Virus record (IMG/VR): IMGVR_UViG_3300023214_000431
Direction: 5' to 3' (one strand)
Length of the DNA: 58,125 nucleotides
Source of the DNA: an uncultured virus (IMG/VR IMGVR_UViG_3300023214_000431)
Taxonomy: Duplodnaviria > Heunggongvirae > Uroviricota > Caudoviricetes
The notes beneath the pieces were generated by a model that saw nothing but the letters and a program-made list of their open reading frames with translations, was not told the DNA's origin and ran no database searches. Both the position numbers and the translations under genes were made by a program. Below, in pieces: positions 2,087 through 30,247 of the stretch. Position 1 is the stretch's first letter; every line of letters begins with the position of its first letter.

Positions 2087-2656
2087 ATGCGTGCAGACAT
2101 TGTTGGTGGATACGGTCACGAGCTGGCCGGGTACGATTTCGTTGGCGACGACGACTTCGACGACTACGAAATCGACGGCGACTACCTCGTCGGCGATGAC
2201 CTGCTCGGGGGCATCTACCCCGAGAAGAGCGTTCGCAAGAACGCCCTGGTCGCCGCTGCCGTGGCGAACCGTCGTGTCGCCGAAGGCGCCATCGTCAAGG
2301 ACTCCGCGCCCACCAAGGCTCGCGAGTACATCCTGGGCTTCGACTCCACCGCCGTTCCCGGCAGCACGAGCGCGAACATCACCAAGCGTCCCCAGGTGAT
2401 CTTCCGCCCGGAGCGCGTCGTGATCCCCTCGGCGGTCGGCGTGGACTTCCAGGTCGTGGACATCAAGATCGGCAAAAACAGCCAGTTCACCGCCTCGGGC
2501 GAGGTTCCGGCTGTGGTGTTCGCCGAGACCTCGTTCGGCGTCCGTCTGAAGATGGACACCGCGCAGGTGTCGATGGACGTGACGATCTCCGTCCGCAACA
2601 CGAACGCCGCGCAGCGGAACTTTACCGCCGCGATCATCGGTCCAGCCGTCGAATAG
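2087..2656 (+). CDS. Candidate major capsid protein (acidic Gly-motif N-arm, helix, ~110 aa all-beta jelly-roll-like domain)
   Basis: AGGAG RBS, very strong codon bias, flanked by hairpins; about 8 alternating beta-strand segments (YILGF, ANITKRP, FRPERVVI, FQVVDIKIG, VTISVRN, FTAAIIG). Fold is inferred. Confidence 0.6.
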   Translation: MRADIVGGYGHELAGYDFVGDDDFDDYEIDGDYLVGDDLLGGIYPEKSVRKNALVAAAVANRRVAEGAIVKDSAPTKAREYILGFDSTAVPGSTSANITKRPQVIFRPERVVIPSAVGVDFQVVDIKIGKNSQFTASGEVPAVVFAETSFGVRLKMDTAQVSMDVTISVRNTNAAQRNFTAAIIGPAVE

Positions 2657-2774
2657 TCGACGCGCCACCCAAGAGTTGGGGGTCTGTGTGGCACGGGGTG
2701 GAGCGAGCCTCAAAAGCTAGTTCCACCCCTGCCGCGCAGGCATTTTCTCTACCGCTTTTTCAAGGATTCAAAAG

Positions 2775-3101
2775 ATGGCCGAGGCCAGTTACGAAAGGCA
2801 ACATCTCGCACTTCATGCCGCCGCCTACATCAACGGCGCAGGCACGACGGCTGTGACATTCGGCTGTCAAATGACTCGCATCGCGACCGGCCACTACGGC
2901 CTGGTGCTGGGGAACGACGATGGGCTCGTCAATGACGAGAGCTACACCTTCGTCCAGGTCAAAGGCACTGAGGCCCGAAACGCCGTCGTCAATGATGACA
3001 GCAACATCCTGAAATCCATCCGAGTCTATTCGTCTGGCTCGCCCACTGTGCTCGCCGATGCGGGCATCGAGATCCAACTTTACAAGACGGTGACGAGGTA
3101 A
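2775..3101 (+). CDS. Small beta-rich structural protein, paralog 1 of 4
   Basis: SYERQHLA...AAYINGAG...FGCQMTRIATGHYGL motif shared with the next three ORFs. Confidence 0.8.
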   Translation: MAEASYERQHLALHAAAYINGAGTTAVTFGCQMTRIATGHYGLVLGNDDGLVNDESYTFVQVKGTEARNAVVNDDSNILKSIRVYSSGSPTVLADAGIEIQLYKTVTR

Positions 3102-3106
3102 CCACC

Positions 3107-3433
3107 ATGGCAACTTCAAGCTACAACCGTCAGCACCTGGCCGTCTTCGCCGCAGGCCACATCAGCGGCGATGGCAACACGTCACAGGCCTTCGGCTGTT
3201 CGTTGACCCGCATTGACACTGGTCACTACGGTCTCATTCTCGGTGCTGACGTTGGTCTCGTCAATGACGAGAGCTTCACCCGCGTGCAGGTCAAAGGCAC
3301 CTCCAACAACGTGGCCGCGGTGGTTGACACGAGCAACACACTCAAGACCATCCATGTGATCGATGATGGTGGCGCAACCCCAGCCGATGCCGACATCGAA
3401 GTCGCCGTCTTCCGCAGCATCGTGATGGGATAA
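3107..3433 (+). CDS. Small beta-rich structural protein, paralog 2 of 4
   Basis: SYNRQHLA...FGCSLTRIDTGHYGL...GLVNDESFT. Confidence 0.8.
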   Translation: MATSSYNRQHLAVFAAGHISGDGNTSQAFGCSLTRIDTGHYGLILGADVGLVNDESFTRVQVKGTSNNVAAVVDTSNTLKTIHVIDDGGATPADADIEVAVFRSIVMG

Positions 3434-3444
3434 GGAGCCCGAAC

Positions 3445-3774
3445 ATGACCATCAAAAGTTACGACCGGCAACATCTTGCTCTATGGGCTGCGGGCTACAT
3501 GAACGCCGCTGGCACGACCAGCGTGGTCTTTGGTTGCTCGCTTACCCGCATCGCAACAGGACACTACGGCCTCATTCTTGACAGTGATGCCGAACTCGAA
3601 GACGACCAAACCTTCATCCATGTGCAGCCCAAGGGCACATCAATGGGGCGCACGGCCACCGTCAACGACAACAGTGATTCGGTCAAGCGCATCAACATCT
3701 GGTCGATGACTCCGAGCGCGGTCGACAACGCCTTCGAGGTCGCGCTTTATCGGCCTGTAAACTCTGGCCAGTAG
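3445..3774 (+). CDS. Small beta-rich structural protein, paralog 3 of 4
   Basis: SYDRQHLA...FGCSLTRIATGHYGL; AAGGAG RBS. Confidence 0.8.
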   Translation: MTIKSYDRQHLALWAAGYMNAAGTTSVVFGCSLTRIATGHYGLILDSDAELEDDQTFIHVQPKGTSMGRTATVNDNSDSVKRINIWSMTPSAVDNAFEVALYRPVNSGQ

Positions 3775-3870
3775 TCTTCCACCAAAACATGGCCCTCCCC
3801 CCGGCAGGGGTAAGCGCCGGGTTCAATGACCCCAGGGGTAAAGCCCCACCAAAGAACAAGGAGCGGAAAC

Positions 3871-4203
3871 GTGACATACGCAAGCTACGAACGGACACAC
3901 CTCGCGGTTTATGCCGCAGGGTTCATCAACGCCGCTGGCACCACCACGGTTGGTTTCGGCTGCGAGCTGACCCGCGTCTCGACCGGCGTCTTCGCCGCTG
4001 TATTCGGTACCGACGATGGTCTGGTCAACGACCAGAGCTACACCTTCGTCACCACCAAGGGCACCTCGGCAACCCCGCCGCTGTCGGTGAACGTCGAGGA
4101 CACCAGCAACCTGGTCAAGACCATCTTCGTTCAGGGCACCACGCAACTTCACCAGGCCGACCTGGAAGTTGCGATCTTCCGCACCGTCGAGCCCGGGAGC
4201 TGA
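3871..4203 (+). CDS. Small beta-rich structural protein, paralog 4 of 4
   Basis: GTG start after AAGGAG; SYERTHLA...FGCELTRVSTG...GLVNDQSYT. Confidence 0.8.
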   Translation: MTYASYERTHLAVYAAGFINAAGTTTVGFGCELTRVSTGVFAAVFGTDDGLVNDQSYTFVTTKGTSATPPLSVNVEDTSNLVKTIFVQGTTQLHQADLEVAIFRTVEPGS

Positions 4204-4355
4204 TCGAACGGGAACCTGGGGTGGCTCCTGACATGAGTGTCTAGGAGCCGCCCGCCGCTCCTGCGCGGTGAGGTTGCTCGTCAAAATGCTGATAAGCGCC
4301 TGCATGTGTGCAGGGGCGGCAATGGTATTCTTTCTAAATGAAAGACACGCATTCC

Positions 4356-5612
4356 ATGCCGCCAACAATCTCACTCGCCATGATCGCCCGAGACCGGGGA
4401 CGGGAGCTTGCCCGTTGCCTGGAATGCGTGCGTCCGCACGTCGACGAGATCGTGGTCGTGGATGCAGGCGGATCTGAAGACGACACGGTGGATGTCGCAC
4501 GCCGCTTTGGCGCAAAGGTCATTGAGTTCAATCCGACCACCCACCCCGAGGCGTTCTATCTCGATACCGAAGAGCGCTTCGCCAAGCACAACGTTCCGGG
4601 GCCCTTCACCGGGCGCCACGCACTGGCTGACTTCTCGGCGCCGCGCAATCTTTCGTTCGAGCACTGCACGAGCGATTGGATTCTCTGGTTGGATTCGGAC
4701 GACATCGTTCGCAACCCGGAGAAGATTCGTTGGATTGTCGACATGCTCGAAGACAAGAAGCTGCCCATGGGCTTCTTGGCCTACGAGTACGATCACGACG
4801 AGCAAGGCCGCTGTATCTTGCGCCAGGTGCGCGAGCGCTTCATCAAGCGCGAGGCTTTCGTCACTGGTACCGTCAAATGGGTCCAGCCCATCCACGAGCA
4901 CCTGCAAGGTCTCAAAAAGGGGCTGCTCTTTGAAGAGGTTGTGGTGGTTCACCAAAGCCCGGTCGAGACCAAGAATTTGACCCAGGTCGCAGGTCTGAAC
5001 ATTCAAACGCACCACCGCGACCGCGTTCGGTTCCGCAACATCAAGAACCTCCTTGTCGAAAAGGAACGCACCGAAGCCACAGGTGAAGACCTGCACTGGC
5101 GCCTGCACTACTACCTCGGTACCGAGATGCGTACCATCAACCCAGATGTCGCCATCGAGCATTTGTCGAGCTACATCAAGCTCACCACATGGGATGAAGA
5201 GCGCGCTCAGGCCCGCTACTACATCGGTCAGATTCGAGAGATGCAGATGCGCCACGAAGAGGCATGGGACCACTTCGCCGCAGCGGCGCTCGATTTCCCC
5301 ACCAACCCAGCGCCCTGGTTCGCCTTGGCCCGCGTGTGTCTCATCCGTGGCGAGTGGAAGAAGATCATCGAGCTGACCGAAAAGGGCTTCGAGCAGGTCA
5401 CTTCCAAGATCGCAACGAAGCCGTCGCTCGTACTCAACCCTCTCGAATGGCAGTATCGAGCGCACCTGGCTTATTCGCGAGCCCTCATCGAAGAGGGTCG
5501 TCTCGATGAAGCAGAAGAGTCGTGCAACAAGGGCCTTGTTCATCAACCGGATTGCCAGTTCTTGAACGAGCACATGCGCATGATTGAAGCGCGCAGGAAG
5601 GACGCCGCCTGA
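4356..5612 (+). CDS. GT2 glycosyltransferase with C-terminal TPRs
   Basis: ISLAMIARD, EIVVVD, DFSAPRN, WILWLDSDD (DxD), IHEHL, then TPR-like helices; start could also be 4338. Confidence 0.9.
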   Translation: MPPTISLAMIARDRGRELARCLECVRPHVDEIVVVDAGGSEDDTVDVARRFGAKVIEFNPTTHPEAFYLDTEERFAKHNVPGPFTGRHALADFSAPRNLSFEHCTSDWILWLDSDDIVRNPEKIRWIVDMLEDKKLPMGFLAYEYDHDEQGRCILRQVRERFIKREAFVTGTVKWVQPIHEHLQGLKKGLLFEEVVVVHQSPVETKNLTQVAGLNIQTHHRDRVRFRNIKNLLVEKERTEATGEDLHWRLHYYLGTEMRTINPDVAIEHLSSYIKLTTWDEERAQARYYIGQIREMQMRHEEAWDHFAAAALDFPTNPAPWFALARVCLIRGEWKKIIELTEKGFEQVTSKIATKPSLVLNPLEWQYRAHLAYSRALIEEGRLDEAEESCNKGLVHQPDCQFLNEHMRMIEARRKDAA

Positions 5613-5809
5613 TGGCACGAGCAGCGACCGGCCTCAACGCTTCGACCGACGCGCCCAAGGACGCCTACCGTGTCCCCAATGAAGATCCACAGTTCGATAC
5701 GAACAACAAGGAAGTCGAGCTGGGGCAAAAGGGCACACCAGTCAATTCAACAGGTACAATCGGGGTCGCGACTGGCGGCACCGGCAAACCAGTATCCAAC
5801 AGAGGATGA
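5612..5809 (+). CDS. Small hypothetical protein
   Basis: 65 aa, translationally coupled to the GT (TGATG). Confidence 0.6.
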   Translation: MARAATGLNASTDAPKDAYRVPNEDPQFDTNNKEVELGQKGTPVNSTGTIGVATGGTGKPVSNRG

Positions 5810-5816
5810 AAGAGAC

Positions 5817-6374
5817 ATGACCACCGAACTCATCATGGAAGACGAACTCGGCTTCCACAACGCAGCCTCTCTTCGTCAGCTCGCCGCCCGCAGGGCGGCC
5901 AACCGAGGTGTCGCCAGTGCTCAGGCGATGGCGCGCCCTGGCTCACGCATGGCCGCCATGATGGCTTTGCGAGGCAAGGGTGGCACCCGTGGCGCCATGA
6001 TGCCAATGAAGTCCGCGCTGCGCTTCATGCGCAAGCAGAGGGGGCGCCCCATTCCCCGCAGCCGCGCTGGCGTGCCGGGCGCCATGAACCGTCTCGATCA
6101 GCGTCGAGCCTATGGCAAACGCAAGAAGCTCGCTCGCGTGGCCAAAACTGTGATCAAAAAGACTCGCGGTCGCAGTCCAGAGATGCGTGCTCGTCGGGCC
6201 GTCTTTCTGCTCGTCCACCTGTTCACCGGCAAGGGTGCCAAATCGCTGAACACGCAGGCGCGTCAGTCCATCAGGGCAATCGCGGACACCGCTAGCAAAC
6301 GCGCCGCCAAGAACAACTTCCCGGCTCTCACCATGAAGGAGATCGAGAGCCTGTACAAAGTCTCCACGAGGTGA
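5817..6374 (+). CDS. Arg/Met-rich basic protein, putative DNA-associated core protein
   Basis: MTTELIMEDELG acidic leader then very basic sequence; C-terminal module shared with the next ORF. Confidence 0.7.
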   Translation: MTTELIMEDELGFHNAASLRQLAARRAANRGVASAQAMARPGSRMAAMMALRGKGGTRGAMMPMKSALRFMRKQRGRPIPRSRAGVPGAMNRLDQRRAYGKRKKLARVAKTVIKKTRGRSPEMRARRAVFLLVHLFTGKGAKSLNTQARQSIRAIADTASKRAAKNNFPALTMKEIESLYKVSTR

Positions 6375-6979: not shown

Positions 6980-9760
6980 ATGGGCGCAGTAATGCTTCTC
7001 GGCCTCGGCGTCGTTCTCGCCATGGCCTTGGGTCGTGGCGGGGGAGCCGAAGCGGAAAAACTTCCGATCCCCAAGAAGAAGGAAGAGGACATTCCTGACT
7101 TGGACATCGATCCATATGGCTACGCCGCCCAGACTGCGCAGCCCGGGGATCTGCCCGGTGAAGGTGAAGAGCCTGGCGGCGATACGGGCGTCCCTGGTGT
7201 TGCGCCTGGCGAGGCGACCCCTGGCGTGCCGGGTGTACCTGGTCAGCAAGCTGGTGTCCCGGCTGCGCCGGGCAACGCCGCTCAGTCACTGTACGAAGCC
7301 GGTCAGGCCGCCCAAGCTGAGGCCGAAGCAGCTCAGCAAGGTGGCAATGCTGTCGCTGCTGAGGAAGCTGCGGCTCAAGAAATCGAGGCCGCTCGTCAGG
7401 AAGGCCAGGCTGCCGCTGCTGCTGCACGAGCTGAGGCTGAGCAGGCCGCTGCCCAGGCTGCCGCTGCCCAGGCGCAGGCCGAACAAGCTCGCCAGGCCGC
7501 CGCTGCTGAAGCTGAAGCTCGTGTGGCTGCCGAACAGGCAGCACAAGCCGAGCTGGCTGAAGCCAACGCCGCCAAAGCTGAAGCCGAACGCCTCGCTCAA
7601 GAGGCTCAGGCCGAGCAAGACGCTGCCATTGCAAAGGCCAAGGCCGATGCAGCCAAAGCCGCTCAGGGCGCCGCAGAGGCCGCCACACAGCGTGCAAACG
7701 CGGCCATCGCCGCCGCCAAAGAAAAAGCCGCCAAGGAGCAAGCTGCGGCTACGGCAGCGGCCAAAGAAGAGCATGACAAGGCAATCGCCGAGGCCAAGGC
7801 CAGGACCAAGGCTGCCGAGGAAAAGGCCGCTGCTGCCGAAGCTGGCCACAAGGCCGCCGAAGCGGCCAAGAAGGCCGAAGCTGCGCGCCAGGAGAAGCTG
7901 CGCCAAAAGCAGATCCAGGACGCCGCCAATGCTGAAAAGCAGCGCAAGGCCGCAGAGGCCGAGGCCAAGGCTCGTGCTGAGGCTGAGCAGAAGCGCGCCG
8001 AGGCTGCCACCAAGGCTGAAGAAGCTGAGCGCGAGCGCCGCGAGGCCATCGCCAAACGAGATCGAGTCAAAGCACAAGAGGCCGCTCGCAAGAAGGCTGA
8101 AGCTGCGCGTGCAGCCGAACAAGCCGACCGCAAGGAAACGGCTGCCAATCAAATCAGCTCAGACCGCGACCTCGAACAAAAGCGCGTGATCGTCAAAAAC
8201 ATCTTCGACGAAGCCGTCAACCGTCGCCAGACAGCGACTTCTTCGATGCCCGTGCTCTCTCGCGCGCCGAAATCAAAAGACGAAAAGCCGAAGGCTTCAA
8301 TCACCGCGATACCGTCCGACCTCAACGCAAAAAAAGCTCTGGTCAAGCGCTACCGCGATGCCGTGATCTCATTTGCGAAGGTGGGTTTCAAGAAGGAGCG
8401 CAACCAAGCGCTGCCGACAGCGGCAATGAAGGCCATCGACAACGAGTTCCTTCGCGTGATGCTGGCCGACCGCACAGGTGCTGGCCGTATCTCGGAGAAC
8501 AACTTCTTCGCGTTGCCGATGACCGGGGTCAAGCGACGTTTGGTTGCCGCTGCCATTGCAGGTGAGCAAAAGGCCGACGTGCTCATCCTCAAGGGGCGCC
8601 CCACCGCTCTTGCCCAATACAACAACAAGTGGAAAGGCAAGAACGCCACCGAAGCGTCCATCGTCCTCAAGCTCCTGGCTCAAAGCGGAGTTAGCGGCTA
8701 CGACTTCGTGGGTGCTGTCGGCCAGCGTAATGAGACCCGCAAGGAGTCCATCAACGTGGTGGCTCGCCATTTCCGCCGCATGGGCGTCGACCTAATGAAG
8801 CCCGACAAGCGCAAGCCCTTCTGGCGTCAACCGGTCACCACCATCCAGGCCAAGGCCCTGCGTGCCGCCAACACCATTCCAATCCCAAAGGGAGCGAAGA
8901 AGCCCGCGCTCATCAAGCAGCGCCCGCTTCCTTCGGTAAAGCCCGTTGCGATCAACCCGAAGACCTCTCGCGTGCAGCCAGTCTCGCCCGCGCCAAATGT
9001 TCCCGACTTGCGCTCACTCAAGGCACGCATCGTTGCACTCAAAGCAACGTTGCCCTCCGAGGCCGCACGCAAGCTCAGCAGCATCGTTCCCAACTCCACT
9101 CGCTTCGTCAACGCTAAAGCGATTGGTCCCGTCACGGCCAAAGCTGCCAGCTTCATCTCTGCCCTGGCTGGCCGAAAGCCAATCTCGGTGGCGATGCTCA
9201 AGACCGCTGGCGGTCGTGCCTACCTCGACGCCGCTCTCAAGATCGCGACGGCAAAGTATGGGAGAAAGCAGCTCCCCATCAAAGCCGCGCCCGCGCCTCA
9301 TGCTCCTGCGCCTCGTGCGCCTGCGGGCCGCACACCTACGTCTGCGCCTGCGCCTCGTACGCCCGCACCAAAGTCCGCAGCCCCAAGGCCAAGTAGCCCA
9401 AGCGCCGCGAGCATCGAAGCCAACCGCAAGGCCATCTCGACGGTCTTTCAAGGACTGCTCGCCCGCAGGCGCAAGCTGTTCCCGCGTGAAGCCAAACAGA
9501 AGGCCATCAACAAGGTGGCCGCGTATCTCAAGAGCAAGGGTGTGCCGCTGTCAAAGCCCAATCCCGCAGCTCTTCACCCCATGCACAAAGCACCACCGGC
9601 TACGACCGCAGCCAAGCTCAAGGCCATTGCAGCCGCGTACAAACCAACCAAGATGGCGGGCGAAATGGGAGTCGGGCCCTACTTCGATTTCTACGGCCAG
9701 GATGAAGGCAGCTTCAGTTATGGTGGCGGCCTCATGACACTCGGGGGCTGGGCGAGCTAA
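6980..9760 (+). CDS. 926 aa membrane-anchored protein with long Ala/Glu/Gln/Lys coiled coil and basic C-terminal half
   Basis: N-terminal TM (AVMLLGLGVVLAMALG), about 300 aa low-complexity helix, internal GVSGYDFVG motif. Confidence 0.8.
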   Translation: MGAVMLLGLGVVLAMALGRGGGAEAEKLPIPKKKEEDIPDLDIDPYGYAAQTAQPGDLPGEGEEPGGDTGVPGVAPGEATPGVPGVPGQQAGVPAAPGNAAQSLYEAGQAAQAEAEAAQQGGNAVAAEEAAAQEIEAARQEGQAAAAAARAEAEQAAAQAAAAQAQAEQARQAAAAEAEARVAAEQAAQAELAEANAAKAEAERLAQEAQAEQDAAIAKAKADAAKAAQGAAEAATQRANAAIAAAKEKAAKEQAAATAAAKEEHDKAIAEAKARTKAAEEKAAAAEAGHKAAEAAKKAEAARQEKLRQKQIQDAANAEKQRKAAEAEAKARAEAEQKRAEAATKAEEAERERREAIAKRDRVKAQEAARKKAEAARAAEQADRKETAANQISSDRDLEQKRVIVKNIFDEAVNRRQTATSSMPVLSRAPKSKDEKPKASITAIPSDLNAKKALVKRYRDAVISFAKVGFKKERNQALPTAAMKAIDNEFLRVMLADRTGAGRISENNFFALPMTGVKRRLVAAAIAGEQKADVLILKGRPTALAQYNNKWKGKNATEASIVLKLLAQSGVSGYDFVGAVGQRNETRKESINVVARHFRRMGVDLMKPDKRKPFWRQPVTTIQAKALRAANTIPIPKGAKKPALIKQRPLPSVKPVAINPKTSRVQPVSPAPNVPDLRSLKARIVALKATLPSEAARKLSSIVPNSTRFVNAKAIGPVTAKAASFISALAGRKPISVAMLKTAGGRAYLDAALKIATAKYGRKQLPIKAAPAPHAPAPRAPAGRTPTSAPAPRTPAPKSAAPRPSSPSAASIEANRKAISTVFQGLLARRRKLFPREAKQKAINKVAAYLKSKGVPLSKPNPAALHPMHKAPPATTAAKLKAIAAAYKPTKMAGEMGVGPYFDFYGQDEGSFSYGGGLMTLGGWAS

Positions 9761-9763
9761 CAC

Positions 9764-10597
9764 ATGCAGGTATTCATCTACGGCGGACTCGTCCTTGCCA
9801 TCTTGCTAATGTTCAGCAAGAGCAAGGGCACAGGCGAAGAGGACGGCGACGAACAGTTGCCGCCTTCACCGTCGCCCCCACGTCCACCGTCGCCCAGGCC
9901 ACCGTCCCCCCAGCCAGCCCGGCCTGGGGACAACGGTCGCACGCCAGGCTCCCCTAGGGGACAGGGGGTGGGTGTCTCCCCGGCAGAAATCGGACGCATC
10001 CAGAGCCTGATTGCTGACGCTTTCAAGGAGGGGTTGGCCAAGCGCAAAGCGCGTCTCGCGGCAGCCAAGCGAAGCGAGTCCAACCAACGCACCATCAATG
10101 CGACGGCAGCCCACTTCCGTGCCCAGGGCGTCTATCTCGACAAGCCCAGCCTATCGAATCCTCCTACGTACTACAGGCAGGGCGAAGCTGCTATCAAACA
10201 GCACCTTGGTCGTACCCTGCTCAGCTTCATGCCTCGTCCACTGTCGCCAGCTTCGACCCCAGGCACCAAACCTGCCGAGCGCCGCGAACCAACCGTCACC
10301 ACGACCCCTGCCGCGGAGAAAATCAAACTCGTCCGCGAGGCGTATGCGAATGCCATGGCCTACGCAATCGATGTTGCCAAGCAGCGCGCAGGGAAGACTC
10401 TTTCACCACAGAACGTGCTCGTTCCCATCTCGCAATACTTCGCGCTGTTCGGCATTCCGCATCCGAACCAGCTCACCGCTGCCTCAAAATTTTGGGCCAA
10501 CCCTATCTCGACCATCCGCAAGAAGACTCAAGATGCAGTCAAGTATGCGCGCACGCAAACCGACATTCAGATCCCATCGAGAGAGGGGCAAGCCTAA
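9764..10597 (+). CDS. Membrane-anchored protein with Pro-rich linker
   Basis: N-terminal TM, PPSP repeats, INATAAHFRAQGVYLDKP module shared with ORFs 6980 and 18181. Confidence 0.75.
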   Translation: MQVFIYGGLVLAILLMFSKSKGTGEEDGDEQLPPSPSPPRPPSPRPPSPQPARPGDNGRTPGSPRGQGVGVSPAEIGRIQSLIADAFKEGLAKRKARLAAAKRSESNQRTINATAAHFRAQGVYLDKPSLSNPPTYYRQGEAAIKQHLGRTLLSFMPRPLSPASTPGTKPAERREPTVTTTPAAEKIKLVREAYANAMAYAIDVAKQRAGKTLSPQNVLVPISQYFALFGIPHPNQLTAASKFWANPISTIRKKTQDAVKYARTQTDIQIPSREGQA

Positions 10598-13032: not shown

Positions 13033-13935
13033 ATGTCGATGACCATCACGCTCAAGCCACAGCTCTTCCGGGGCGATTGGGACCACGCACGTTCACAGTA
13101 TGCGCTGCTTTGGTTCTTGGAGGCCATGTGCCGCGTGAATCAGAGCCACATCCGCCAGTTCCGCCATCTCGCAAAGAAGGGTGTCAAGAAGCCCTATCCG
13201 CGCGTGTACAAGTCGGGCGTCCACTACGAGCGCGAGCGTGGCACCGAAGAGTGGCTCGACATCCCGAACATCCTCGCTGGCGGCTCGTACCCAGGCGAAT
13301 ACCCAGGTCCCTGGGATGACTGCGAAGGACTTGCCTGCTGGCGAGTTGCAGAATTACGCGAGCTGCCCTGGCATTGGGAAGCAACCAAGCGAGACAAGAA
13401 GACCGGCAAGCCGTACACGGTCTATCTCGACCCTGCTTTTGCGCCGCCTCCTGGCGCGCGCAAAGTCAAAGGCGGCATTGCTGCCAAACCGTTCGCGAAG
13501 TTCAAGCGTCGTCCTGATGGCTCCTTTGCGTACCACGCGCTCCTGTTACTACCCGATGGTCGCCTCGAAGATCCGAGTCTGACCATGGGCATGACGTGGG
13601 AGAAGGAGTTCCACGACCGCGACATTGCCCGCAAGTATCGCGATGGAGAGTTGCCCATTCAGATTCGGTATGCGACTACGCCGGACACGGTGGTCATCGA
13701 TCCGGAGTCACCCACCGGCTACTCCAACAAGATCGAGGAAGCCAAGCAAAAGACAGGTCTCGCGGGCGACGCCTACGAGCAAGGTCGTGGTGCGGGTGAT
13801 GTCACGAACGAGACGCCGGAGGAAGTTCTTGCCGACCACGGCATCGTGCAGGGCTACGCTCACGGCGAAGATATTCAGGCCCTGATGGACCGAGCAACCG
13901 AGTCACGGGGCTTTGCCCCGGGTCTGCGCTACTGA
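13033..13935 (+). CDS. Transglutaminase-like cysteine protease (putative virion maturation protease)
   Basis: DDCEGLACWRVAEL (Cys at helix start), AYHALL (His), LEDPS (Asp) in the order typical of the transglutaminase/papain-like triad. Confidence 0.75.
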   Translation: MSMTITLKPQLFRGDWDHARSQYALLWFLEAMCRVNQSHIRQFRHLAKKGVKKPYPRVYKSGVHYERERGTEEWLDIPNILAGGSYPGEYPGPWDDCEGLACWRVAELRELPWHWEATKRDKKTGKPYTVYLDPAFAPPPGARKVKGGIAAKPFAKFKRRPDGSFAYHALLLLPDGRLEDPSLTMGMTWEKEFHDRDIARKYRDGELPIQIRYATTPDTVVIDPESPTGYSNKIEEAKQKTGLAGDAYEQGRGAGDVTNETPEEVLADHGIVQGYAHGEDIQALMDRATESRGFAPGLRY

Positions 13936-14072: not shown

Positions 14073-14828
14073 ATGGGCATCGTATTCGGCATAGCAGCAG
14101 TTCTCTTGCTCGTAGCACTCTCGGGCAAAAAGAACGAAGCTGCGTCCGACAAGGACGGCAAGCAAAAGGACACCACTCAAGGCGCCCTGCCGTCATTCGT
14201 GCGTCAAATCATTGTCAACCGCAACGCGAGCAAGGACGACCTGGCTCGCGCAGCTCTTGAAGCAAAGAACGCGGGCTACCCGCAGCTTGCGCAAGCACTC
14301 GCCAAGCGCATCACCGAGGGAAAGTCTCTCATCACGTCGCCATGGAAAGATGTCTCCGATGGCGCTTGGACACGCTTCGCTCGTGTCATCAGCAACGGCA
14401 AAAAGCCTGACGACATCAAGACCAAGGGCTTTTATGGGATGTTCGACTTGGGCGTCCGTCGTCTCGTCGACCTTGGTGTCATGCGCGATCCAGTGTGCAG
14501 TACGGCGACCGACCCAAAGACCGGAGCGACGATTCGAATCTGGCGTGGTCAATGGGTGATGCCACAGGAGAAATTCCTCGCCGACCCAAAGCTCCAATAC
14601 GACCTGTTCTGCAAGTCGATGGAACTTTACCGCAACATCATCGCCGAGAAGTACAAGCAGGTTCTCGGTCTCGACATCAACGGTCAGAAGGCAACGTTGT
14701 CAGGACTTTTAGCGCTTGCGCACAGTTGCGGCGCCGAGGGTATGTACAAGTGGCTCACCAACCCTGAGATGCGTGAGCGTTTCACCTGGGTCACCAATGC
14801 TTACAACAGGGCCAACGGCATCTTCTGA
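14073..14828 (+). CDS. Membrane-anchored lysozyme-fold (muramidase/transglycosylase-like) protein
   Basis: N-terminal TM; GFYGMFDLG..L.DLG, FLADPKLQ, TLSGLLALAH..GAEG motifs; no obvious catalytic ES. Confidence 0.55.
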   Translation: MGIVFGIAAVLLLVALSGKKNEAASDKDGKQKDTTQGALPSFVRQIIVNRNASKDDLARAALEAKNAGYPQLAQALAKRITEGKSLITSPWKDVSDGAWTRFARVISNGKKPDDIKTKGFYGMFDLGVRRLVDLGVMRDPVCSTATDPKTGATIRIWRGQWVMPQEKFLADPKLQYDLFCKSMELYRNIIAEKYKQVLGLDINGQKATLSGLLALAHSCGAEGMYKWLTNPEMRERFTWVTNAYNRANGIF

Positions 14829-22241: not shown

Positions 22242-22918
22242 TGCCATTTCCTCTCATCATAGCGGTGCTCCTGGGCCTGGTTGCCCTCGGAGCATCGAGC
22301 GGAGGGCATAGCGTCCCCCCGTCTCAGCGCCGGTCTCGTTTGCGAACGGGACCGGTGTCTTCAAAGCTACTCACCTACAACCTGCTACGTGGGACGGTTC
22401 AAGAGAGCCCCGCGCAAATAGCAGCATTGATCGAGCGCAAGACAGGGCGCTCACTCGATCTTCCTGTCGTGGTCCTGGCCTCGATGATTGCGTCAGAGAC
22501 CGGGAGTGGGCCGCGATCTGCGAAAGCCGCTGTAGCGTGGGCGGCACGCAACGAGGCCAGGGCCACTGCCAGAACTATTTTGCAGCTTCTCATCCCGCGT
22601 GGGCAGCTTGGCGCCCAGGGCGTAGCAGGGCGCGGGTATGCAGCGACGGCACGACCACCCAATCCCATCGATCTGGACGTAGCACAGGCAGTGCTGGAGA
22701 ACCGAATTGCAGATGTCTCGGAAGGCTCGCGTTACTTCGATTCTCCTGCGGCGTTCGAGAAACTTCGTGGGACCGAAGGTTACGAACCGGGACGCGCACA
22801 GGAGCGCGTCGCGCGCATGGAAGCGCGCGGCTACGAGCCCTACTATGTGCCTGGGGTGAACCCTCGTTACTTGCGTCTTTGGCGCAAGGAGGGTGTGGCT
22901 GGGAGTCTCGCAGCATGA
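22241..22918 (+). CDS. Membrane-anchored cell wall hydrolase, SleB/Hydrolase_2-like
   Basis: MPFPLIIAVLLGLVALG anchor; LASMIASE (catalytic Glu), KAAVAWAARN, D.SEGSRYF. Confidence 0.65.
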   Translation: MPFPLIIAVLLGLVALGASSGGHSVPPSQRRSRLRTGPVSSKLLTYNLLRGTVQESPAQIAALIERKTGRSLDLPVVVLASMIASETGSGPRSAKAAVAWAARNEARATARTILQLLIPRGQLGAQGVAGRGYAATARPPNPIDLDVAQAVLENRIADVSEGSRYFDSPAAFEKLRGTEGYEPGRAQERVARMEARGYEPYYVPGVNPRYLRLWRKEGVAGSLAA

Positions 22919-23547
22919 GCTTCATTCAGATGGGATACATGGGCGGTCCTCGCGCCGAGGCCGCCATGCAAAGGCGCGCTGAAAACACGCTCAACTACGC
23001 TGAGAAGTGGGCTCCTGTTTTCGGTGCGCCGCTGTCGTGGCTGATGGCCTTGGCCGAGATGGAATCGTCTCACATTCCGACCAAGGTCAACATGGCCGCG
23101 CGTCACAAGGGCGGCGCCTGGGGTCTGCTGCAACAAATGGCTGACGAGGTTCCCTACAAGCTCAAGGTCATCAAGCGCTTCTATGGTCGGCGGGGCAAGC
23201 CACACGCAGCGCGTGTGCAGCAAACCCTTCGCAAGTGGAAGGGCAACCCGAAGGCTCTACTCGATCCAGACTTGAACGTGATGCTTGCTGCGTGGCAGCT
23301 CGGACGCTTGAACCGCGTGTTCGATGGCAACTTCGCCAACGCCTTCGCCGCTTATCACCAAGGCGAGTACGCCGTCAAGCGGCGTTTGAAGCAAGGGCTT
23401 CCTTCAGTCGATCCACGCAAGCAGCCCAAGGGCTATGCCTACGTCAACGAAGCCGCCCACGCGCGAATGAAGTACATCCCGATGCTCATCGCTCGTCTCG
23501 AAGAGCGCCTTGCAACTCAATGGACGCCATATCTGGCGATGGACTGA
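22915..23547 (+). CDS. SLT-family lytic transglycosylase
   Basis: LMALAEMESS (motif I), GAWGLLQ (II), LLDPDLNV, AAYHQG (III). Confidence 0.9.
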   Translation: MSFIQMGYMGGPRAEAAMQRRAENTLNYAEKWAPVFGAPLSWLMALAEMESSHIPTKVNMAARHKGGAWGLLQQMADEVPYKLKVIKRFYGRRGKPHAARVQQTLRKWKGNPKALLDPDLNVMLAAWQLGRLNRVFDGNFANAFAAYHQGEYAVKRRLKQGLPSVDPRKQPKGYAYVNEAAHARMKYIPMLIARLEERLATQWTPYLAMD

Positions 23548-23550: not shown

Positions 23551-23856
23551 ATGTTCTGGCTTTTCCCTCTTGCTCTCATTGCATTGCTTGCCGCCCGCTC
23601 AGGTTCAAGCGAGCAAGGCGAGACCCTCGTCGAGCAAAAAGAGCGCGAGCAGCGCGAGCGCACCGAACGCGAACAGCGCCGAGCAAGAGCCATTGCAGCA
23701 CGGAAAGCCGCAGACAAAAGACGCGCAGAAGAGTACGCACGTCAGGATAAGTTCTTCGAGGACACACGCGGCAAGCTCAATGAAGCACAACGCGACCTCG
23801 ACCAACTCAAAAAAGACATTTCCGAATTGAACGGGGAAGACCCCCACCATCTGTGA
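23551..23856 (+). CDS. Small TM + coiled-coil protein
   Basis: MFWLFPLALIALLAA; ends ELNGEDPHHL. Confidence 0.75.
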   Translation: MFWLFPLALIALLAARSGSSEQGETLVEQKEREQRERTEREQRRARAIAARKAADKRRAEEYARQDKFFEDTRGKLNEAQRDLDQLKKDISELNGEDPHHL

Positions 23857-23866: not shown

Positions 23867-24118
23867 GTGATGATCTGGTTGTTGCCCCTGTTGCTATTTG
23901 GTGCATACGCCGCCGCAAGCCGCACCGAGGACCAAGCTCTTGCCGACGCCGAGCAAAAGCGTCTCCGTGAGATCAAGGAAATGGAGCGCAAACTCGCCGA
24001 GGAAGCTGCGCGCGCCGCTGCCAACAAGAAACAAGGCGAGCAGTTCCTGGCCATGAAGCCTGTCGTTGCATCGCCCGAGTTGTATGAACTCAACGGCGAG
24101 CACCCACGCCACCTGTGA
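23867..24118 (+). CDS. Small TM + coiled-coil protein, paralog of the previous ORF
   Basis: AAGGAG RBS; MIWLLPLLLFGA; ends ELNGEHPRHL. Confidence 0.75.
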   Translation: MMIWLLPLLLFGAYAAASRTEDQALADAEQKRLREIKEMERKLAEEAARAAANKKQGEQFLAMKPVVASPELYELNGEHPRHL

Positions 24119-25476: not shown

Positions 25477-25815
25477 ATGAGCTGTCTCGCAGGTCTTAAC
25501 GATTTCCTCACGGCTGACGTTCCCGCCGTCAACGGCGGTGTTGGCGCCGATCTCGATGTCTCATCGCTGGTCGCAAAAAAGACCATCTACCTATCGGGCA
25601 TCTTCAATGGTCGCTACACCATCTTGGGCTCGCACGACGACGTGCGCTTCGTTCCCATCGCAATGTTCGAGGGCGACGCCGCACGTTTCGGAACCTCGGG
25701 CCCACAGACCGTGAAAAAGGAGATCGAGCTGACCATCAAGACCGTCAAGGTCTCTCGTGCAGCCGACCGCACCGTCAACATTTCCATCGCAGGCCAACAG
25801 ACCTGCGCCTGCTAG
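25477..25815 (+). CDS. Stand-alone spike-base beta domain
   Basis: KKTIYLSGIFNGRYTILGSHDD resembles the N-domains of ORFs 33475 and 35817; ends IAGQQTCAC. Confidence 0.7.
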   Translation: MSCLAGLNDFLTADVPAVNGGVGADLDVSSLVAKKTIYLSGIFNGRYTILGSHDDVRFVPIAMFEGDAARFGTSGPQTVKKEIELTIKTVKVSRAADRTVNISIAGQQTCAC

Positions 25816-27643: not shown

Positions 27644-28108
27644 GTGTCACGTTCATCATTCGACAAAGCATTCAAGCGCGCCATGGAAGCCGCTGCCAAA
27701 GACGGCAGCAGCAGCAAACCGGTGTCGAAAAAGGTCAAACGCTCACGCGCATTTCGCGAAGAGCAGGCCAAAGACAAAAGCGCTCGCCGGTTCATCGGGC
27801 AGTGTCAGATCGACTTGAAGTTCAAGCGAATGGCCACCGATCCAAAGGGCGCCGTTCGCCCCTGGTACGTCGCCATCGTGTGCGTGGGCAAGATGCGCCA
27901 CAAGTTCTCGGTCGGCGGTCCTGCGGGGTGGGAAGAGTACAAGACGCCCATGGACGATGGCCTACTCGATGACCTGGCCATCGCAGCAGTTGGTTTTGCG
28001 CTCGACGAAGACGATGACGACGTTCCCGATCACGTCACAGAGACAGTCGAGTTGGCAGTGAAGAAGGCTCGCGAGGGCAGCAGCTACAAAGTGAGGAAAA
28101 CGATATGA
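27644..28108 (+). CDS. FxxxF-leader family protein
   Basis: MSRSSFDKAFKRAMEAA, basic linker, acidic passenger domain. Confidence 0.75.
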   Translation: MSRSSFDKAFKRAMEAAAKDGSSSKPVSKKVKRSRAFREEQAKDKSARRFIGQCQIDLKFKRMATDPKGAVRPWYVAIVCVGKMRHKFSVGGPAGWEEYKTPMDDGLLDDLAIAAVGFALDEDDDDVPDHVTETVELAVKKAREGSSYKVRKTI

Positions 28109-28236
28109 CCAAGAAACTCGACGAACTCTATGTGAAGGCTCTCGCGGCAGCGAAGAAGGAACAGTCACGTTCCAAGGCGGAAAACATCCTCGACACCGCC
28201 ATCCTCCCTGATGGCCGCAAGGTCGATTTTCACTGA
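28105..28236 (+). CDS. 43 aa near leader-only family member
   Basis: GAGGA RBS, ATGA coupling; MTKKLDELYVKALAAAKK resembles the ORF 30717 leader. Confidence 0.65.
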   Translation: MTKKLDELYVKALAAAKKEQSRSKAENILDTAILPDGRKVDFH

Positions 28237-28250
28237 GAGGTTCAAAGCAA

Positions 28251-28757
28251 ATGGGAAAGTCACTTCTGGAAAAAGAGTTCGAGCGCTTGAGCAAAGGCGC
28301 CAAGTCGCAATCTGATTTCGACAAGGCATACCTCAAAGCGCTCGAAGCCACGAAGAAGCCTTACGAGCCGCGCTCGCCCGCAGGCCGCCAATACAAGCGA
28401 CGCCTTGAAAGAATCGGTGACTTTGGTGAACACGAGCAGGACCGTCTTGTTCGCGACTCTGAAGCTGGCATGGAGGAACCCCGTATTCCCAACCTCGACC
28501 GGATGAGCGAAGACAAGCTCATGGATTTCTGGGCGCGTTACCATCGCCCCACCAAAAAAACCATCAACGAACTCTTCCCGGGCTGGCCGCAGCGCGGATT
28601 GCGAAAAACCGTCTCCGCTTTGGCCAACTACGCCAGCAACAAAGCTGCCGAAAAAGCCAGTTGGAGGCGCCAAGATAGAACCGCGACCAACATCTACAAG
28701 AAAACCGCCGCCATGGTCTACGACGACCTCCCCGACTATGCCCGTTTCAAAGGATGA
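28251..28757 (+). CDS. FxxxF-leader family protein (doubled leader)
   Basis: LLEKEFERLSKG followed by DFDKAYLKALEATKK. Confidence 0.8.
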   Translation: MGKSLLEKEFERLSKGAKSQSDFDKAYLKALEATKKPYEPRSPAGRQYKRRLERIGDFGEHEQDRLVRDSEAGMEEPRIPNLDRMSEDKLMDFWARYHRPTKKTINELFPGWPQRGLRKTVSALANYASNKAAEKASWRRQDRTATNIYKKTAAMVYDDLPDYARFKG

Positions 28758-28760
28758 AAG

Positions 28761-29237
28761 ATGAGCACCAACGCATTTGAAAAGAGCTTCCAAAAGGCCA
28801 TCAAGGCCGTGAAGCAAGGCAAGGGCAAGCGCGTTCATGCCCATGGCATGACGGACCTCGATGTCGACGAAGCGCTCGATGCCTACCTGACAGCGGCAAT
28901 CTGGAGCACGTCAGGAACAACCCCTGAAGGCGAAGAACTGGAGAACCTCGATGATGTCTACAGCATCGACGATTTCTCCGATGAAGCTGTCAAGCAGGCA
29001 CGCAGCACCATCGCCAAGTTCTTCGCCGCCAATGCCAAAGACTTGCGTGCCACAGGAGCTGACGCTTCTCAACACGGCCACGACTTGTGGTTGACCCGTG
29101 AACGCCACGGCGTCGGTTTTTGGGATCGAGGTTACGGTCGTGCCGGTGACCGTCTCACCGAGGCTGCTCACAAGCTCGGCGAAGCCGATCTGTACGTGGG
29201 CGATGACAACAAACTCTATTTTGTGAGTACAAAATGA
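28761..29237 (+). CDS. FxxxF-leader family protein with GHDLWLTR..HG.GFWD domain
   Basis: AFEKSFQKAIKAVKQGKG; the passenger motif looks like one recurrent in phage hypothetical proteins (from recall, not searched). Confidence 0.8.
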   Translation: MSTNAFEKSFQKAIKAVKQGKGKRVHAHGMTDLDVDEALDAYLTAAIWSTSGTTPEGEELENLDDVYSIDDFSDEAVKQARSTIAKFFAANAKDLRATGADASQHGHDLWLTRERHGVGFWDRGYGRAGDRLTEAAHKLGEADLYVGDDNKLYFVSTK

Positions 29238-29779
29238 CCACATTCGACAAGAGCTTCCAAAAAGCCATGAAGGCTGTCCGTAAGGGCAAGCAGGGCAGCA
29301 ACCTTCGCGGTTATCGCTTGAACCAAATCGAGAAGCGCAATGCGCTTGCCATGTCCAAACGACCCCGCGATCTGAGCCGAGTCAAAAAATTCGACTACAT
29401 CTCGCGTTGGACGCAAGGTCACTACAACCCCCACGACAACATCGTCGTCCGCGACAAGTTCGGCAAGCACGAGCTATCGGGCAGCCATGGCAGCAGCGAC
29501 TACGTTTCCGTCTTCAAGAACATCAGCGGCGACCGCATCTTCTACTACGTCCTCACAGAGAACCCGCGTCTGCCCTACATCGGCCTCAACGAGTACATGG
29601 TCACCCGTGGCGACAAAAGCAAAGTCGATAAAGACGAACGCTACGAGCCCGATGACGTGGTGATGCCGAGCGCCGAAGTCTTCGCCCAAGAGCACGAGAC
29701 CTACGAATACCTCGGGAAAAATTGGGAAGACAAATCCGAACTGTGGAAGGTCAAAGCCCTCCGCGACCACATGGGATAG
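29234..29779 (+). CDS. FxxxF-leader family protein
   Basis: MTTFDKSFQKAMKAVRKGKQG. Confidence 0.8.
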   Translation: MTTFDKSFQKAMKAVRKGKQGSNLRGYRLNQIEKRNALAMSKRPRDLSRVKKFDYISRWTQGHYNPHDNIVVRDKFGKHELSGSHGSSDYVSVFKNISGDRIFYYVLTENPRLPYIGLNEYMVTRGDKSKVDKDERYEPDDVVMPSAEVFAQEHETYEYLGKNWEDKSELWKVKALRDHMG

Positions 29780-29809
29780 CCCAGCTTCACATCCAAAAGG
29801 AAACCTCAG

Positions 29810-30247
29810 ATGTTCGGCATTCTCATCCTCGGCGGAATCACAGCCGCTCTCGTCGCCTGGAGCAAGCGCGACAAGATCTCAGGCCCAGGCATGGGCTCGC
29901 CTCTCGGGCTGCCCCCGATGATGGGCAAAGCCCTCGATGGCAAAACGGCCAAGTACGAAGACTCGAAGGTTCCGACCGGCATCCCGGGGCCACCTTTACA
30001 GCCTGAAGAAGAGCGTCTCTTGTCCCTCATCACCTTGTGGGTGAAAGACAAGAGCTTCCCACCTGGCAAGAAGCGCTTCATGACTCGCGCACTCGCCGTC
30101 GAAGCGGCCAAACTCGCCGCGCAACTTGGCCTCGTGCAAACCGCCAAAGCCATCTTGACCGATGGCCGCCTTCCCACCGAACGCATGGGGCGTCGAATGA
30201 TCACCATTCGCGAGGCTGTTGTGGCCTTCAACAACAACAAGGACTGA
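29810..30247 (+). CDS. Membrane-anchored small helical protein
   Basis: MFGILILGGITAALVAW; ISGPGMGSPLGLPPMMG. Confidence 0.75.
   Translation: MFGILILGGITAALVAWSKRDKISGPGMGSPLGLPPMMGKALDGKTAKYEDSKVPTGIPGPPLQPEEERLLSLITLWVKDKSFPPGKKRFMTRALAVEAAKLAAQLGLVQTAKAILTDGRLPTERMGRRMITIREAVVAFNNNKD

Follow-up and report, generated by a model that had tools for sequence, protein, structure and literature searches.

The 58,125 nucleotides of viral DNA analysed here (the window; the features given below as start..end lie on its plus strand) raise the question of whether short hydrophobic-x-Gly motifs in virion proteins are processing sites for a transglutaminase-like protease encoded among them. The original prediction held that such motifs mark many virion precursors, and the boundaries of segments within them. 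All 30 strings that we looked up, other than those of ORF2087 and GYDFVG discussed below, were found in the named ORFs; the numbers attached to them were ORF starts, not motif positions. Their abundance is at chance level, as [ILMVFYW]-x-G occurs 204 times in the 37 ORFs of the 1–31 kb region against 204.3±11.5 in 20-amino-acid local shuffles, and 198 times against 192±11 in whole-protein shuffles of the same ORFs (one ORF start being set differently). The enzyme ORFs contain 84 instances against 84.7±7.5 in shuffles, and the residue at -2 is hydrophobic for 204 of 706 glycines in structural ORFs (28.9%) and for 84 of 262 in enzyme ORFs (32.1%; Fisher p=0.34), so the motif is no commoner in virion proteins than in the glycosyltransferase and helicase genes. 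A lack of enrichment over the enzyme ORFs is the outcome that the original prediction itself had set against the idea of many processed precursors, which we therefore abandon. [DE]-Φ-x-G (Φ, hydrophobic) is nominally high in the window (33–34 against 19, p=0.004; 29 against 19, p=0.02, when ORF2087 is removed), each value coming from one of 18 motif-by-group tests, and the excess is not replicated in 803 non-redundant proteins of 82 related loci (408 against 390–398±18). Nor do the motifs mark segment boundaries, ΦΦG sites being untied to acidic-to-basic boundaries (z from -1.4 to +1.0). By position-specific score, only 3 of the 30 listed instances are like the ORF2087-family array; most keep the Gly at best in the single homologues available, and conservation of the ORF16271 and ORF18895 sites is poor in the one homologue of each protein. 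Outside the jelly-roll family, array-like clusters are found in 5 of 803 proteins, barely above the 2.9±1.0 expected. A role of hydrophobic-x-Gly as a processing site throughout the 2–30 kb region is thus not supported; composition alone gives those instances.

The only cluster among those noted that exceeds chance is at the start of the capsid candidate ORF2087 (189 amino acids, 2087–2656), which reads MRADIVGGYGHELAGYDFVGDDDFDDYEIDGDYLVGDDLLGG. Residues 1–45 (2087..2221) form an acidic array of six Φ-Φ-G motifs, DIVG, ELAG, DFVG, EIDG, YLVG and DLLG, located as originally described within residues 4–41 and built on a degenerate pentapeptide G-D-[DE]-Φ-Φ; residues 1–45 contain 8 Φ-x-G, where shuffling these residues gives 3.6±1.35 (p=0.0016). 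Across 37 sequences G7, E12, G15 and G36 never vary, and G41 is kept in at least 90%. Among 108 unique N-termini of the family a Gly is found at -5 in 40% of sites, array length ranges from 36 to 83 amino acids, both length and sequence varying widely, and Gln and Lys are almost absent from the arrays. A pentapeptide-repeat protein (PF00805) was considered and rejected: that family has a tandem A(D/N)LXX consensus with a small residue at i-2 and forms a β-helix, whereas the array has Asp at the equivalent position and is modelled with a pLDDT <45, and ORF2087 gives no Pfam match at E≤0.01. Two distant lineages also have Φ-Φ-G arrays at the N-terminus of their jelly-roll protein, there with mixed or basic flanks: that of related locus L095 reads SSMGDIVGYDRMGVMG…RFMGADDIVG, and 14 sequences of the L096 lineage, with basic flanks, keep F4-G5, V10 and V25-G26 invariant or almost so. 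The Gly and hydrophobic positions are retained across lineages; the charge is not. The low AF2 confidence (pLDDT 34–41 over the array, all residues 1–44 being <50) and the variability of the tail could suggest an acidic spacer of low complexity, without any sequence-specific role, in a gene neighbourhood that is only historical, but the invariant residues, the 5-residue periodicity of the array and the conservation of Φ-Φ-G in lineages with neutral or basic tails make this very unlikely.

The array is followed by a predicted basic helix (…AAVANRRVAEGA…) and linker (residues 46–75, 2222..2311), modelled as helices 46–50 and 53–65, in which R63 and G67 are invariant (37 sequences), and then by a very highly conserved jelly-roll domain (residues 76–189, 2312..2656) with more than 469 homologues. 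The best fold match of ORF2087 with VIA-align 2 is the HHIV-2 capsid chain 6h82_b (Z 8.6, rmsd 4.8, 111 aligned), the sole chain at Z≥8 among 48,161 compared, followed by HCIV-1 6h9c_Z (Z 7.5), STIV 4ind (A223, Z 7.5) and SPV1 (Z 7.2); P23-77 VP17 is matched at Z 6.3, and non-viral β-sandwiches are also found, at Z 7–7.9. These viral matches (Z 8.6–6.3) bear out the view of ORF2087 as a jelly-roll capsid-type protein, and the model predicts the eight-stranded jelly roll of the vertical single-jelly-roll capsid/penton class. The C-terminal domain thus has the fold of the single-jelly-roll capsid or penton proteins of HHIV-2, HCIV-1, P23-77, STIV and PRD1 (P31), none of which is known to have an N-terminal Gly-motif array or a transglutaminase-fold partner. 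Genomes in the group of the window virus range from ~30 kb to >200 kb (reaching 120–270 kb), compared with ~10–30 kb for those families. Many ORFs near ORF2087 have N-terminal membrane anchors. The virus is a large, unclassified bacterial virus, probably tail-less and membrane-containing.

A more restricted motif, x-F-V-G-[DE], is found again in a few other families, among them the C-terminal tail of ORF1453, ORF6980 and some giant proteins. As originally stated, GYDFVG is encoded twice, at 2129–2146 (ORF2087) and at 8696–8713 (ORF6980); 5 of the 18 bases are different, every change being synonymous, so one is not a recent DNA copy of the other. Any hexapeptide common to two window proteins is expected in 95% of shuffles; recurrence elsewhere of one from residues 1–45 of ORF2087 is seen in ~1% of shuffles, in a post-hoc test. 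ORF6980 (926 amino acids, 6980..9760) has an N-terminal membrane anchor, a coiled coil, repeated basic modules and, close to its C-terminus, KMAGEMG; in the sole homologue found (L004, 49% identity) GYDFVGAVG is identical and opens a conserved block. ORF1453 (171 amino acids, 1453..1968), directly upstream of ORF2087, is composed of hydrophobic Gly-rich helices and a flexible C-terminal tail, YSFGVSGESGG here and xxG-[AMIL]-F-(V)-G-[DE] in relatives (35-sequence C-tail alignment). Among the 803 other proteins from related loci, [DEAQ]-F-[VI]-G is over-represented, with 31 instances against 13.7±3.5; the tail of the ORF1453 family and a small number of giant or repeat proteins account for the excess. 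The same motif in flexible tails of adjacent core genes (ORF1453 C-tail, ORF2087 N-tail) and in giant proteins is consistent with a docking or assembly signal that acts without cleavage. The arrays would then be multivalent short linear motifs through which ORF2087, ORF1453 and some large proteins are brought into the particle by binding to one shared partner (a capsid shell, vertex or membrane protein), while ORF13033 has another job. The ORF2087 array could work uncut, its copy number is free to vary, as expected of avidity motifs, and its charge flips between lineages while Φ and G stay. However, the motif is modestly enriched outside the jelly-roll family, with few families contributing, and docking, which we consider rather unlikely, leaves an invariant Cys-His-Asp hydrolase neighbour unexplained.

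This neighbour, ORF13033 (300 amino acids, 13033..13935), is on the basis of alignments and fold matches a new, compact predicted transglutaminase-superfamily enzyme, with a putative Cys97-His168-Asp180 triad (codons 13321–13323, 13534–13536 and 13570–13572). D96-C97-E98, H168 and E179-D180-P181-S182 are invariant in 30 sequences of the family, and in the model the helix 97–109 starts at Cys97, His168 lies in strand 165–172 and Asp180 comes after the strand. The Cys-His-Asp order, the invariant triad and the position of Cys at the start of a helix agree with the original description of this protein as transglutaminase-like. VIA-align 2 matches it with PeiP (Z 5.1), PeiW (4.9), BDI_1141 (4.9) and the transglutaminase 4xz7 (4.3), then more weakly with LapG (4.0), TgpA (3.7), factor XIII (3.6), PNGase (3.5), TGM3 (3.4) and TGM2 (3.4); the best 31 rows include many transglutaminase-fold chains, with every Z ≤5.1 and hence weak. 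Foldseek gave no match at E≤0.001, and the Transglut_core profile (PF01841) matched neither ORF13033 nor 29 aligned relatives, even at E≤10. The ORF13033-family profile recovers 1,223 proteins. Among 50 sampled remote relatives, 8 have a Transglut_core match with E≤0.0013 (of which 3 reach the 23-bit cut-off), one matches Peptidase_C93 weakly (E 0.0096) and 6 match Intein or Hint; in relative P0099 the intein lies exactly before Cys97. ESM Atlas neighbours include Transglut_core and CEP76-peptidase clusters. A clan CE protease of the adenain/Ulp1 type was rejected: the catalytic order in that clan is His, Asp/Glu, (Gln), Cys on an Ulp1-type fold, which the order in ORF13033 contradicts, and clan CE chains are absent among the listed fold matches, save weak USPL1 rows (E>0.5).

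The closest structural matches of ORF13033 are isopeptidases of the cell wall rather than maturation proteases. Two proteins of methanogen viruses, PeiW and PeiP, are, like ORF13033, virus-encoded transglutaminase-fold Cys enzymes; they act on the archaeal cell wall and have wall-binding repeats. The resemblance to these pseudomurein endoisopeptidases, at low Z and 8–14% sequence identity, could mean that ORF13033 attacks the cell wall, as a virion-associated or lytic endopeptidase or isopeptidase, and has nothing to do with the Gly motifs; the tail of ORF2087 would then have a structural role of its own. The module neighbours in L095 do bear peptidoglycan-binding and SLT domains, and the window has SLT (22915–23547) and Amidase_2 (32463–33131) genes. 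We nevertheless judge this unlikely, given that no wall-binding domain was found in ORF13033, that two muralytic enzymes are already present in the window, that relatives carry active-site inteins, and that ORF13033 is one of the few genes kept at 40–55% identity across loci where most neighbours are unrecognisable. Transglutaminase-fold enzymes also include cross-linkers, deamidases and amidases. On a purely conjectural reading, a transpeptidase or true transglutaminase would pass an acyl-enzyme formed at a tail Gly (or Gln) to Lys, cross-linking capsid proteins covalently; the fold and triad would allow it, and several Lys and Gln residues of the ORF2087 jelly-roll are invariant (K127, K130, Q133, K155, Q160). 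The scarcity of Gln and Lys in the arrays argues against such a reaction, for which literature titles and abstracts offered no precedent, and which seems most improbable.

The gene order provides far stronger evidence of a link than anything in the original prediction. Among the 30 loci with at least 5 kb of upstream sequence, 29 have the jelly-roll gene followed, on its own strand, by an ORF13033-type gene, with a median gap of 1,086 bp, and the same order is found in L095 and L096; the two genes are a conserved pair. ORF1453 has homologues in 37 related loci, in each of them directly before the jelly-roll gene. Four tandem paralogues of 108–125 amino acids (2775–3101, 3107–3433, 3445–3774 and 3826–4203, spanning 2775..4203) have homologues between the jelly-roll and enzyme genes in L038, L060, L051, L052 and others, with three copies in L096. 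Downstream, membrane-anchored ORF14073 (251 amino acids, 14073..14828), for which we found no family or PDB match, has a homologue after the enzyme gene in 18 loci. The β-rich domain of ORF25477 (112 amino acids, 25477..25815) has homologues in 23 loci, in relatives as part of large proteins (350–1660 amino acids) directly downstream of the enzyme gene. This synteny shows a shared module, of which ORF13033 is a core gene, not an enzyme–substrate pair.

In the overall interpretation, then, the predicted enzyme, the capsid candidate and their gene pairing stand, while the marking of many precursors by hydrophobic-x-Gly does not. We tentatively favour, at somewhat less than an even chance, a model in which ORF13033 is a virion maturation protease trimming the ORF2087 tail, by analogy with the virophage protease and its capsid protein. 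It would cut the tail at several Φ-Φ-Gly sites, during or after assembly, removing an acidic pro-segment that masks the basic helix. ORF1453 and a few large proteins, ORF6980 among them, would probably have their related x-F-V-G-[DE] tails trimmed by it as well. As weak evidence for this model, the net charges of enzyme core and array are +8 and -12 in the window and -1 and +5 in L096, and the two are correlated at Spearman -0.39 (p=0.04, n=27, uncorrected for relatedness).

The adenovirus protease, poxvirus I7 and ASFV pS273R are clan CE cysteine proteases with short Gly cleavage motifs. In mavirus, the jelly-roll capsid protein has a terminal extension with four Gly sites in tandem (GG|X, GY|G), at which the viral cysteine protease cuts this extension into fragments of 12–51 amino acids (PMC6048507). 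As for clan CE viral proteases (adenovirus, virophage MVP, I7, pS273R), the cysteine enzyme gene here lies in a morphogenetic module by jelly-roll genes. The differences are a Cys-His-Asp order on a transglutaminase-type core instead of His-Asp/Glu-Cys on an Ulp1-type core, a bacterial host, candidate sites that are Φ-Φ-Gly and not GG|X, and an N-terminal tail on a single-jelly-roll protein, whose cleavage is here only proposed. LapG (Peptidase C93), a site-specific, periplasmic, calcium-dependent protease that cuts an adhesin at a di-alanine site, shares the transglutaminase fold and Cys-His-Asp triad (rmsd 4.9, 109 aligned for the match given above), although ORF13033 has no direct sequence match to it. 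The T4 gp21 and phiKZ gp175 prohead proteases, one protease acting on many head proteins at a short consensus motif, follow the logic of the original prediction, the many-substrate part of which is unsupported here; their herpesvirus-assemblin-like serine protease fold, from tailed viruses with HK97-type capsids, is unrelated to ORF13033. In its broadest form, which we regard as possible but doubtful, our proposal is that a transglutaminase-fold enzyme, not an adenain-type one, may be the maturation protease or transpeptidase of undescribed jelly-roll, membrane-containing bacterial viruses, acting on multi-site Φ-V/L-Gly arrays at the termini of a penton-like protein and its membrane partner. 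If this is true, Gly-directed capsid maturation would have been invented independently in these viruses.

The protein encoded by ORF2087 (2087–2656, 189 amino acids), put forward in the original prediction as a capsid candidate, has a predicted jelly-roll fold of the capsid type in its very highly conserved residues 76–189. The only match of this modelled domain at Z≥8 among 48,161 chains is the capsid-shell chain of HHIV-2, a membrane-containing archaeal virus (Z 8.6); the next matches are HCIV-1, STIV A223, SPV1 and P23-77 VP17, interspersed with non-viral β-sandwiches. Foldseek found no match in the PDB at E≤0.001 for the models of ORF2087 and of the transglutaminase-type enzyme ORF13033 (13033–13935, 300 amino acids), and PHROGs gave no family for either protein, nor for the 20 small relatives that were queried. 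The homologues of ORF2087, of 100–330 amino acids, number more than 469 and occur on contigs as long as 260 kb, and scans of IMG/VR gave one locus with an ORF2087 alignment and three with a small-relative alignment: the virus group that carries ORF2087 and ORF13033 is barely represented in that resource. Relatives also encode proteins of about 240 amino acids made of two tandem ORF2087-type jelly rolls (e.g. in L046, 238 amino acids, minus strand), and paralogues of the domain form the C-terminus of proteins of 300–520 amino acids. The paralogues (loci L046, L018, L051, L042 and L002) lie mostly upstream and on the opposite strand, with none in the window, and the tandem forms are possible candidates for double-jelly-roll shell proteins.

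Residues 1–45 of ORF2087 are predicted to be disordered (pLDDT 34–41) and contain eight Φ-x-G motifs (Φ, hydrophobic residue), where their composition alone predicts 3.6±1.35 (p=0.0016). In 108 distinct N-termini of the family (36–83 amino acids), the Gly sites show D at –4, D/E at –3, L/I/F at –2, V/L/S at –1 and D at +1 and +2; 40% of the sites have a further Gly at –5, and the array can be described as a degenerate pentapeptide, G-D-[DE]-Φ-Φ. The alignment of 37 sequences shows no variation at G7, E12, G15 or G36, and conservation of at least 90% at G41. The jelly-roll proteins of two distant relatives, L095 (64% G+C, 30 kb contig) and L096 (37% G+C, 50 kb contig), again have N-terminal Φ-Φ-G arrays, with mixed or basic flanks: the L095 array reads SSMGDIVGYDRMGVMG…RFMGADDIVG, and the L096-lineage consensus is MxFGTSAxVRVGR…VxVGR…VRTG, in which G5 and V25-G26 are invariant in 14 sequences. 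In these arrays the Gly and the hydrophobic positions are the ones retained by selection. Set beside these invariant positions, the idea that the tail is a functionless spacer is very unlikely.

The original prediction also proposed that hydrophobic-x-Gly motifs recur across the virion proteins and mark segment boundaries. Every motif string that it quoted is present, including GYDFVG at both 2129–2146 and 8696–8713, where the coding DNA differs at 5 of 18 bases, all synonymously. The motif is not enriched: the 37 ORFs at 1–31 kb contain 204 [ILMVFYW]-x-G sites for 204.3±11.5 expected from 20-residue local shuffles, and the 11 enzyme ORFs contain 84 for 84.7±7.5. The share of Gly preceded by a hydrophobic residue at –2 is similar in these two sets (204/706 vs 84/262, p=0.34). 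This lack of enrichment is the outcome that the prediction had said would refute it. The form [DE]-Φ-x-G shows a nominal excess in the window (p=0.004, or p=0.02 without ORF2087, as one of 18 tests), and this excess was not replicated in a set of 82 related loci with 803 non-redundant proteins (408 vs 390–398±18). Φ-x-G, ΦΦG and ΦΦG[DE] are enriched in no gene group of the window, and neither are the adenovirus-type patterns (M/I/L)xGG and (M/I/L)xGxG, which are if anything depleted (16 vs 16.1 at 1–31 kb; 3 vs 9.5 in the unknown ORFs at 31–57 kb). A role as segment boundaries does not hold either, as ΦΦG sites are not tied to acidic-to-basic transitions and the charge downstream of them is the same as at random positions or other Gly. 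A position-specific score derived from 108 ORF2087-family arrays, of which several thresholds were tried, gave 16 sites scoring at least 4 in the window's other proteins (6–7.6 expected, p about 0.01) and 4 sites scoring at least 6 (1.6–2.1 expected, not significant). Short Gly motifs collected by eye over many proteins are here at chance level. Two adjacent small membrane-anchored paralogues (23551–23856 and 23867–24118) both end in ELNGE-x-P-x-HL, and the two ELNG instances of the original prediction therefore represent a single C-terminal motif.

A narrower motif taken from the ORF2087-family consensus, [DEAQ]-F-[VI]-G, occurs 31 times in the 803 other proteins for 13.7±3.5 expected, an excess that traces to about six families. 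These include the C-terminal tail of the family of ORF1453, the conserved gene directly upstream of ORF2087 (…G-A-F-V-G-E-D-K-P-V-S-G-G or …S-G-M-F-G-D), three giant proteins of 1,198–1,749 amino acids and two small repeat proteins. ORF1453 itself has a degenerate YSFGVSGE, and the membrane-anchored, 926-amino-acid ORF6980 has GYDFVGAVG, identical in the sole homologue found. Beyond the jelly-roll family, few proteins have array-like clusters (5 of 803 vs 2.9±1.0 expected), and within the window only ORF2087 has one. An uncut docking signal, the enzyme having a different role, would draw on such sharing of the motif among a few families, and is a possible though doubtful explanation of the array.

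The description of ORF13033 as transglutaminase-like is upheld at the superfamily level. At least 178 close homologues were found, and D96-C97-E98, H168 and E179-D180-P181-S182 are invariant in the 30 sequences aligned. In the model (pLDDT 67.8 overall, 85–97 in the core) a helix begins at Cys97 and His168 lies in the sheet that follows. An exhaustive structure aligner places transglutaminase-fold enzymes at the top, at Z of only 5.1–3.4 (PeiP, PeiW, a putative protease, TGase, LapG, TgpA, factor XIII, PNGase and TGM2/3), so that the fold evidence from the model is weak but consistent. Pfam gives no match to ORF13033 itself at a threshold as loose as E≤10, and PDB sequence searches with the profile of its 30-sequence family alignment, with ORF14073 (another module member) and with ORF20886 gave nothing meaningful. 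Most of the 1,223 proteins collected by the family profile are compact forms of the same domain (130–190 amino acids); among 50 sampled, eight match Transglut_core (three reaching the curated cut-off), one weakly matches Peptidase_C93 and six contain intein or Hint modules. The invariant triad (Cys97-His168-Asp180), the fold ranking and the Transglut_core matches of the relatives together lead to this assignment. A role of ORF13033 as a cross-linking transpeptidase is very unlikely. In the homologue P0099 an intein lies exactly between D96 and C97, with the catalytic Cys as its +1 residue. Inteins are common in the family (P0099, other homologues of 444–521 amino acids, P0316, P0331, P0348, P0368 and P0381). 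Five homologues (P0003, P0009, P0062, P0070 and P0100) end in R-L-G-R-[LV]-G-R-I-G-R-[IV]-G-x-P; these C-termini and a small protein of a related locus (L029:10510-10854, EFVGRGGFVGRVGRGGFVGQG) are forms of the Φ-G array with basic residues.

Thirty related loci extend 5 kb or more beyond the enzyme gene on its upstream side; in 29 of them the jelly-roll orthologue precedes that gene on the same strand (median gap 1,086 bp, range 538–6,091). The lone exception is L004, a close relative of the window; like the window, it has an insertion of about 10 kb of lineage-specific genes. The conserved order is ORF1453-like gene, jelly roll, small paralogues, enzyme, a large protein with the ORF25477 domain and an ORF14073-like gene, and it is the same in L095 and L096; most of the other ORFs listed in the original prediction have no or one homologue in related loci. 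Enzyme–array charge complementarity showed only a weak, uncorrected trend and is not relied on. We tentatively favour ORF13033 as a putative maturation protease that would act on the ORF2087 tail, because it has a hydrolase-type triad, because it is tightly conserved with inteins at the active site, and because its gene consistently adjoins a capsid gene whose product has a disordered tail with repeated Gly sites. The mavirus protease, which cuts the terminal domain of the capsid protein at four tandem Gly sites (PMC6048507), is a direct precedent. A cell-wall endopeptidase without relation to the motif, a reading for which PeiP and PeiW count among the fold matches, is unlikely.

The window (58 kb, about 58% G+C) carries nearly all its genes on the plus strand and has no tRNA genes, and 50,697 phage records contain no match to its DNA or to ORF2087 as a protein query. 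Only three of the 40 ORFs at 1–31 kb can be clearly assigned to a family (a GT2-TPR glycosyltransferase, an SLT domain and phrog_1915), while 31–58 kb contains matches to Amidase_2, a collagen-repeat protein, large glycosyltransferases, methyltransferases, an epimerase, PadR and a UvrD-type helicase. Its muralytic genes suggest that the virus infects bacteria. The collagen-triple-helix protein (35817–36986) lies near a block (42343–50228) of multi-domain glycosyltransferases, C- and FkbM-type methyltransferases and a sugar epimerase, and these genes may provide glycosylated fibres on the particle. Many ORFs at 6–30 kb have an N-terminal membrane anchor and several are extremely basic; the Lys/Ala/Arg-rich proteins at 5817–6374, 14828–16249 and 16271–18169 (the last containing GKFVKKGAKGIAKGAKKGAKGIAKGAKKG) are possible candidates for DNA-condensing core proteins. 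Four tandem paralogues of 108–125 amino acids (2775–4203; consensus SY-x-R-x-HLA…FGC-x-LTR-[IV]-x-TG) separate the capsid-type gene from the remaining module, and L096 has three copies at the same place; a long ORF in another frame (3789–4244) was rejected as spurious because GC1 exceeds GC3. A module …VA-x-[HY]-F-[RK]-x-x-G-[VI]-x-L-x-KP… is present in two copies in ORF6980 (6980–9760) and in a single copy in each of ORF9764 (9764–10597) and ORF18181 (18181–18867), all of which start with a membrane anchor; ORF6980 and ORF18181 have PLSKPNP in common. Five small ORFs (27644, 28251, 28761, 29234 and 30251), which span 27644–30649 with only ORF29810–30247 intervening, have in common an N-terminal helix motif, F-[DE]-[KE]-x-F-x-x-A-x-x-A; KSFQKA is identical in two of them and the remainder of each protein differs. 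This motif looks more like a common N-terminal signal or module than Φ-x-G does.

The 194 kb relative (record G002, 194,181 bp, L084–L093; 88% complete according to CheckV, annotated piecewise) encodes a protein-primed family B polymerase (L085:6-1817), a HerA/DUF87-type ATPase (L084:15553-17352), two SNF2 helicases, an RNA ligase, Ro60/TROVE, a TnpB-like protein, SLT and many glycosyltransferases. Its 100 ORFs of 200 amino acids or more gave no match to an HK97 capsid, terminase or portal family. A 902-amino-acid protein (L087:838-3546) matches the shoulder and repeat domains of the major vault protein (E 5e-19 and 5e-10). This gene content, together with the tandem jelly-roll paralogues, tentatively suggests a lineage of tail-less jelly-roll viruses with unusually large genomes (contigs of 120–272 kb). 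The titles and abstract openings of the literature searched give no account of such a group, nor of jelly-roll phages with a protease of the transglutaminase type.

Eukaryotic jelly-roll viruses (adenoviruses, virophages, polintons and giant viruses) characteristically mature their capsids with a dedicated cysteine protease, and we know of no such maturation in bacterial jelly-roll viruses. Whatever the mechanism, ORF2087 and ORF13033 provide sequence markers for a large viral group without Pfam or PHROG assignment. If the proposed maturation is true, they would form a directly testable enzyme–substrate pair, both being small soluble proteins, and a Cys enzyme of separate ancestry that is tied so closely to the jelly-roll gene in bacterial viruses would bear on the origin of this morphogenetic module.
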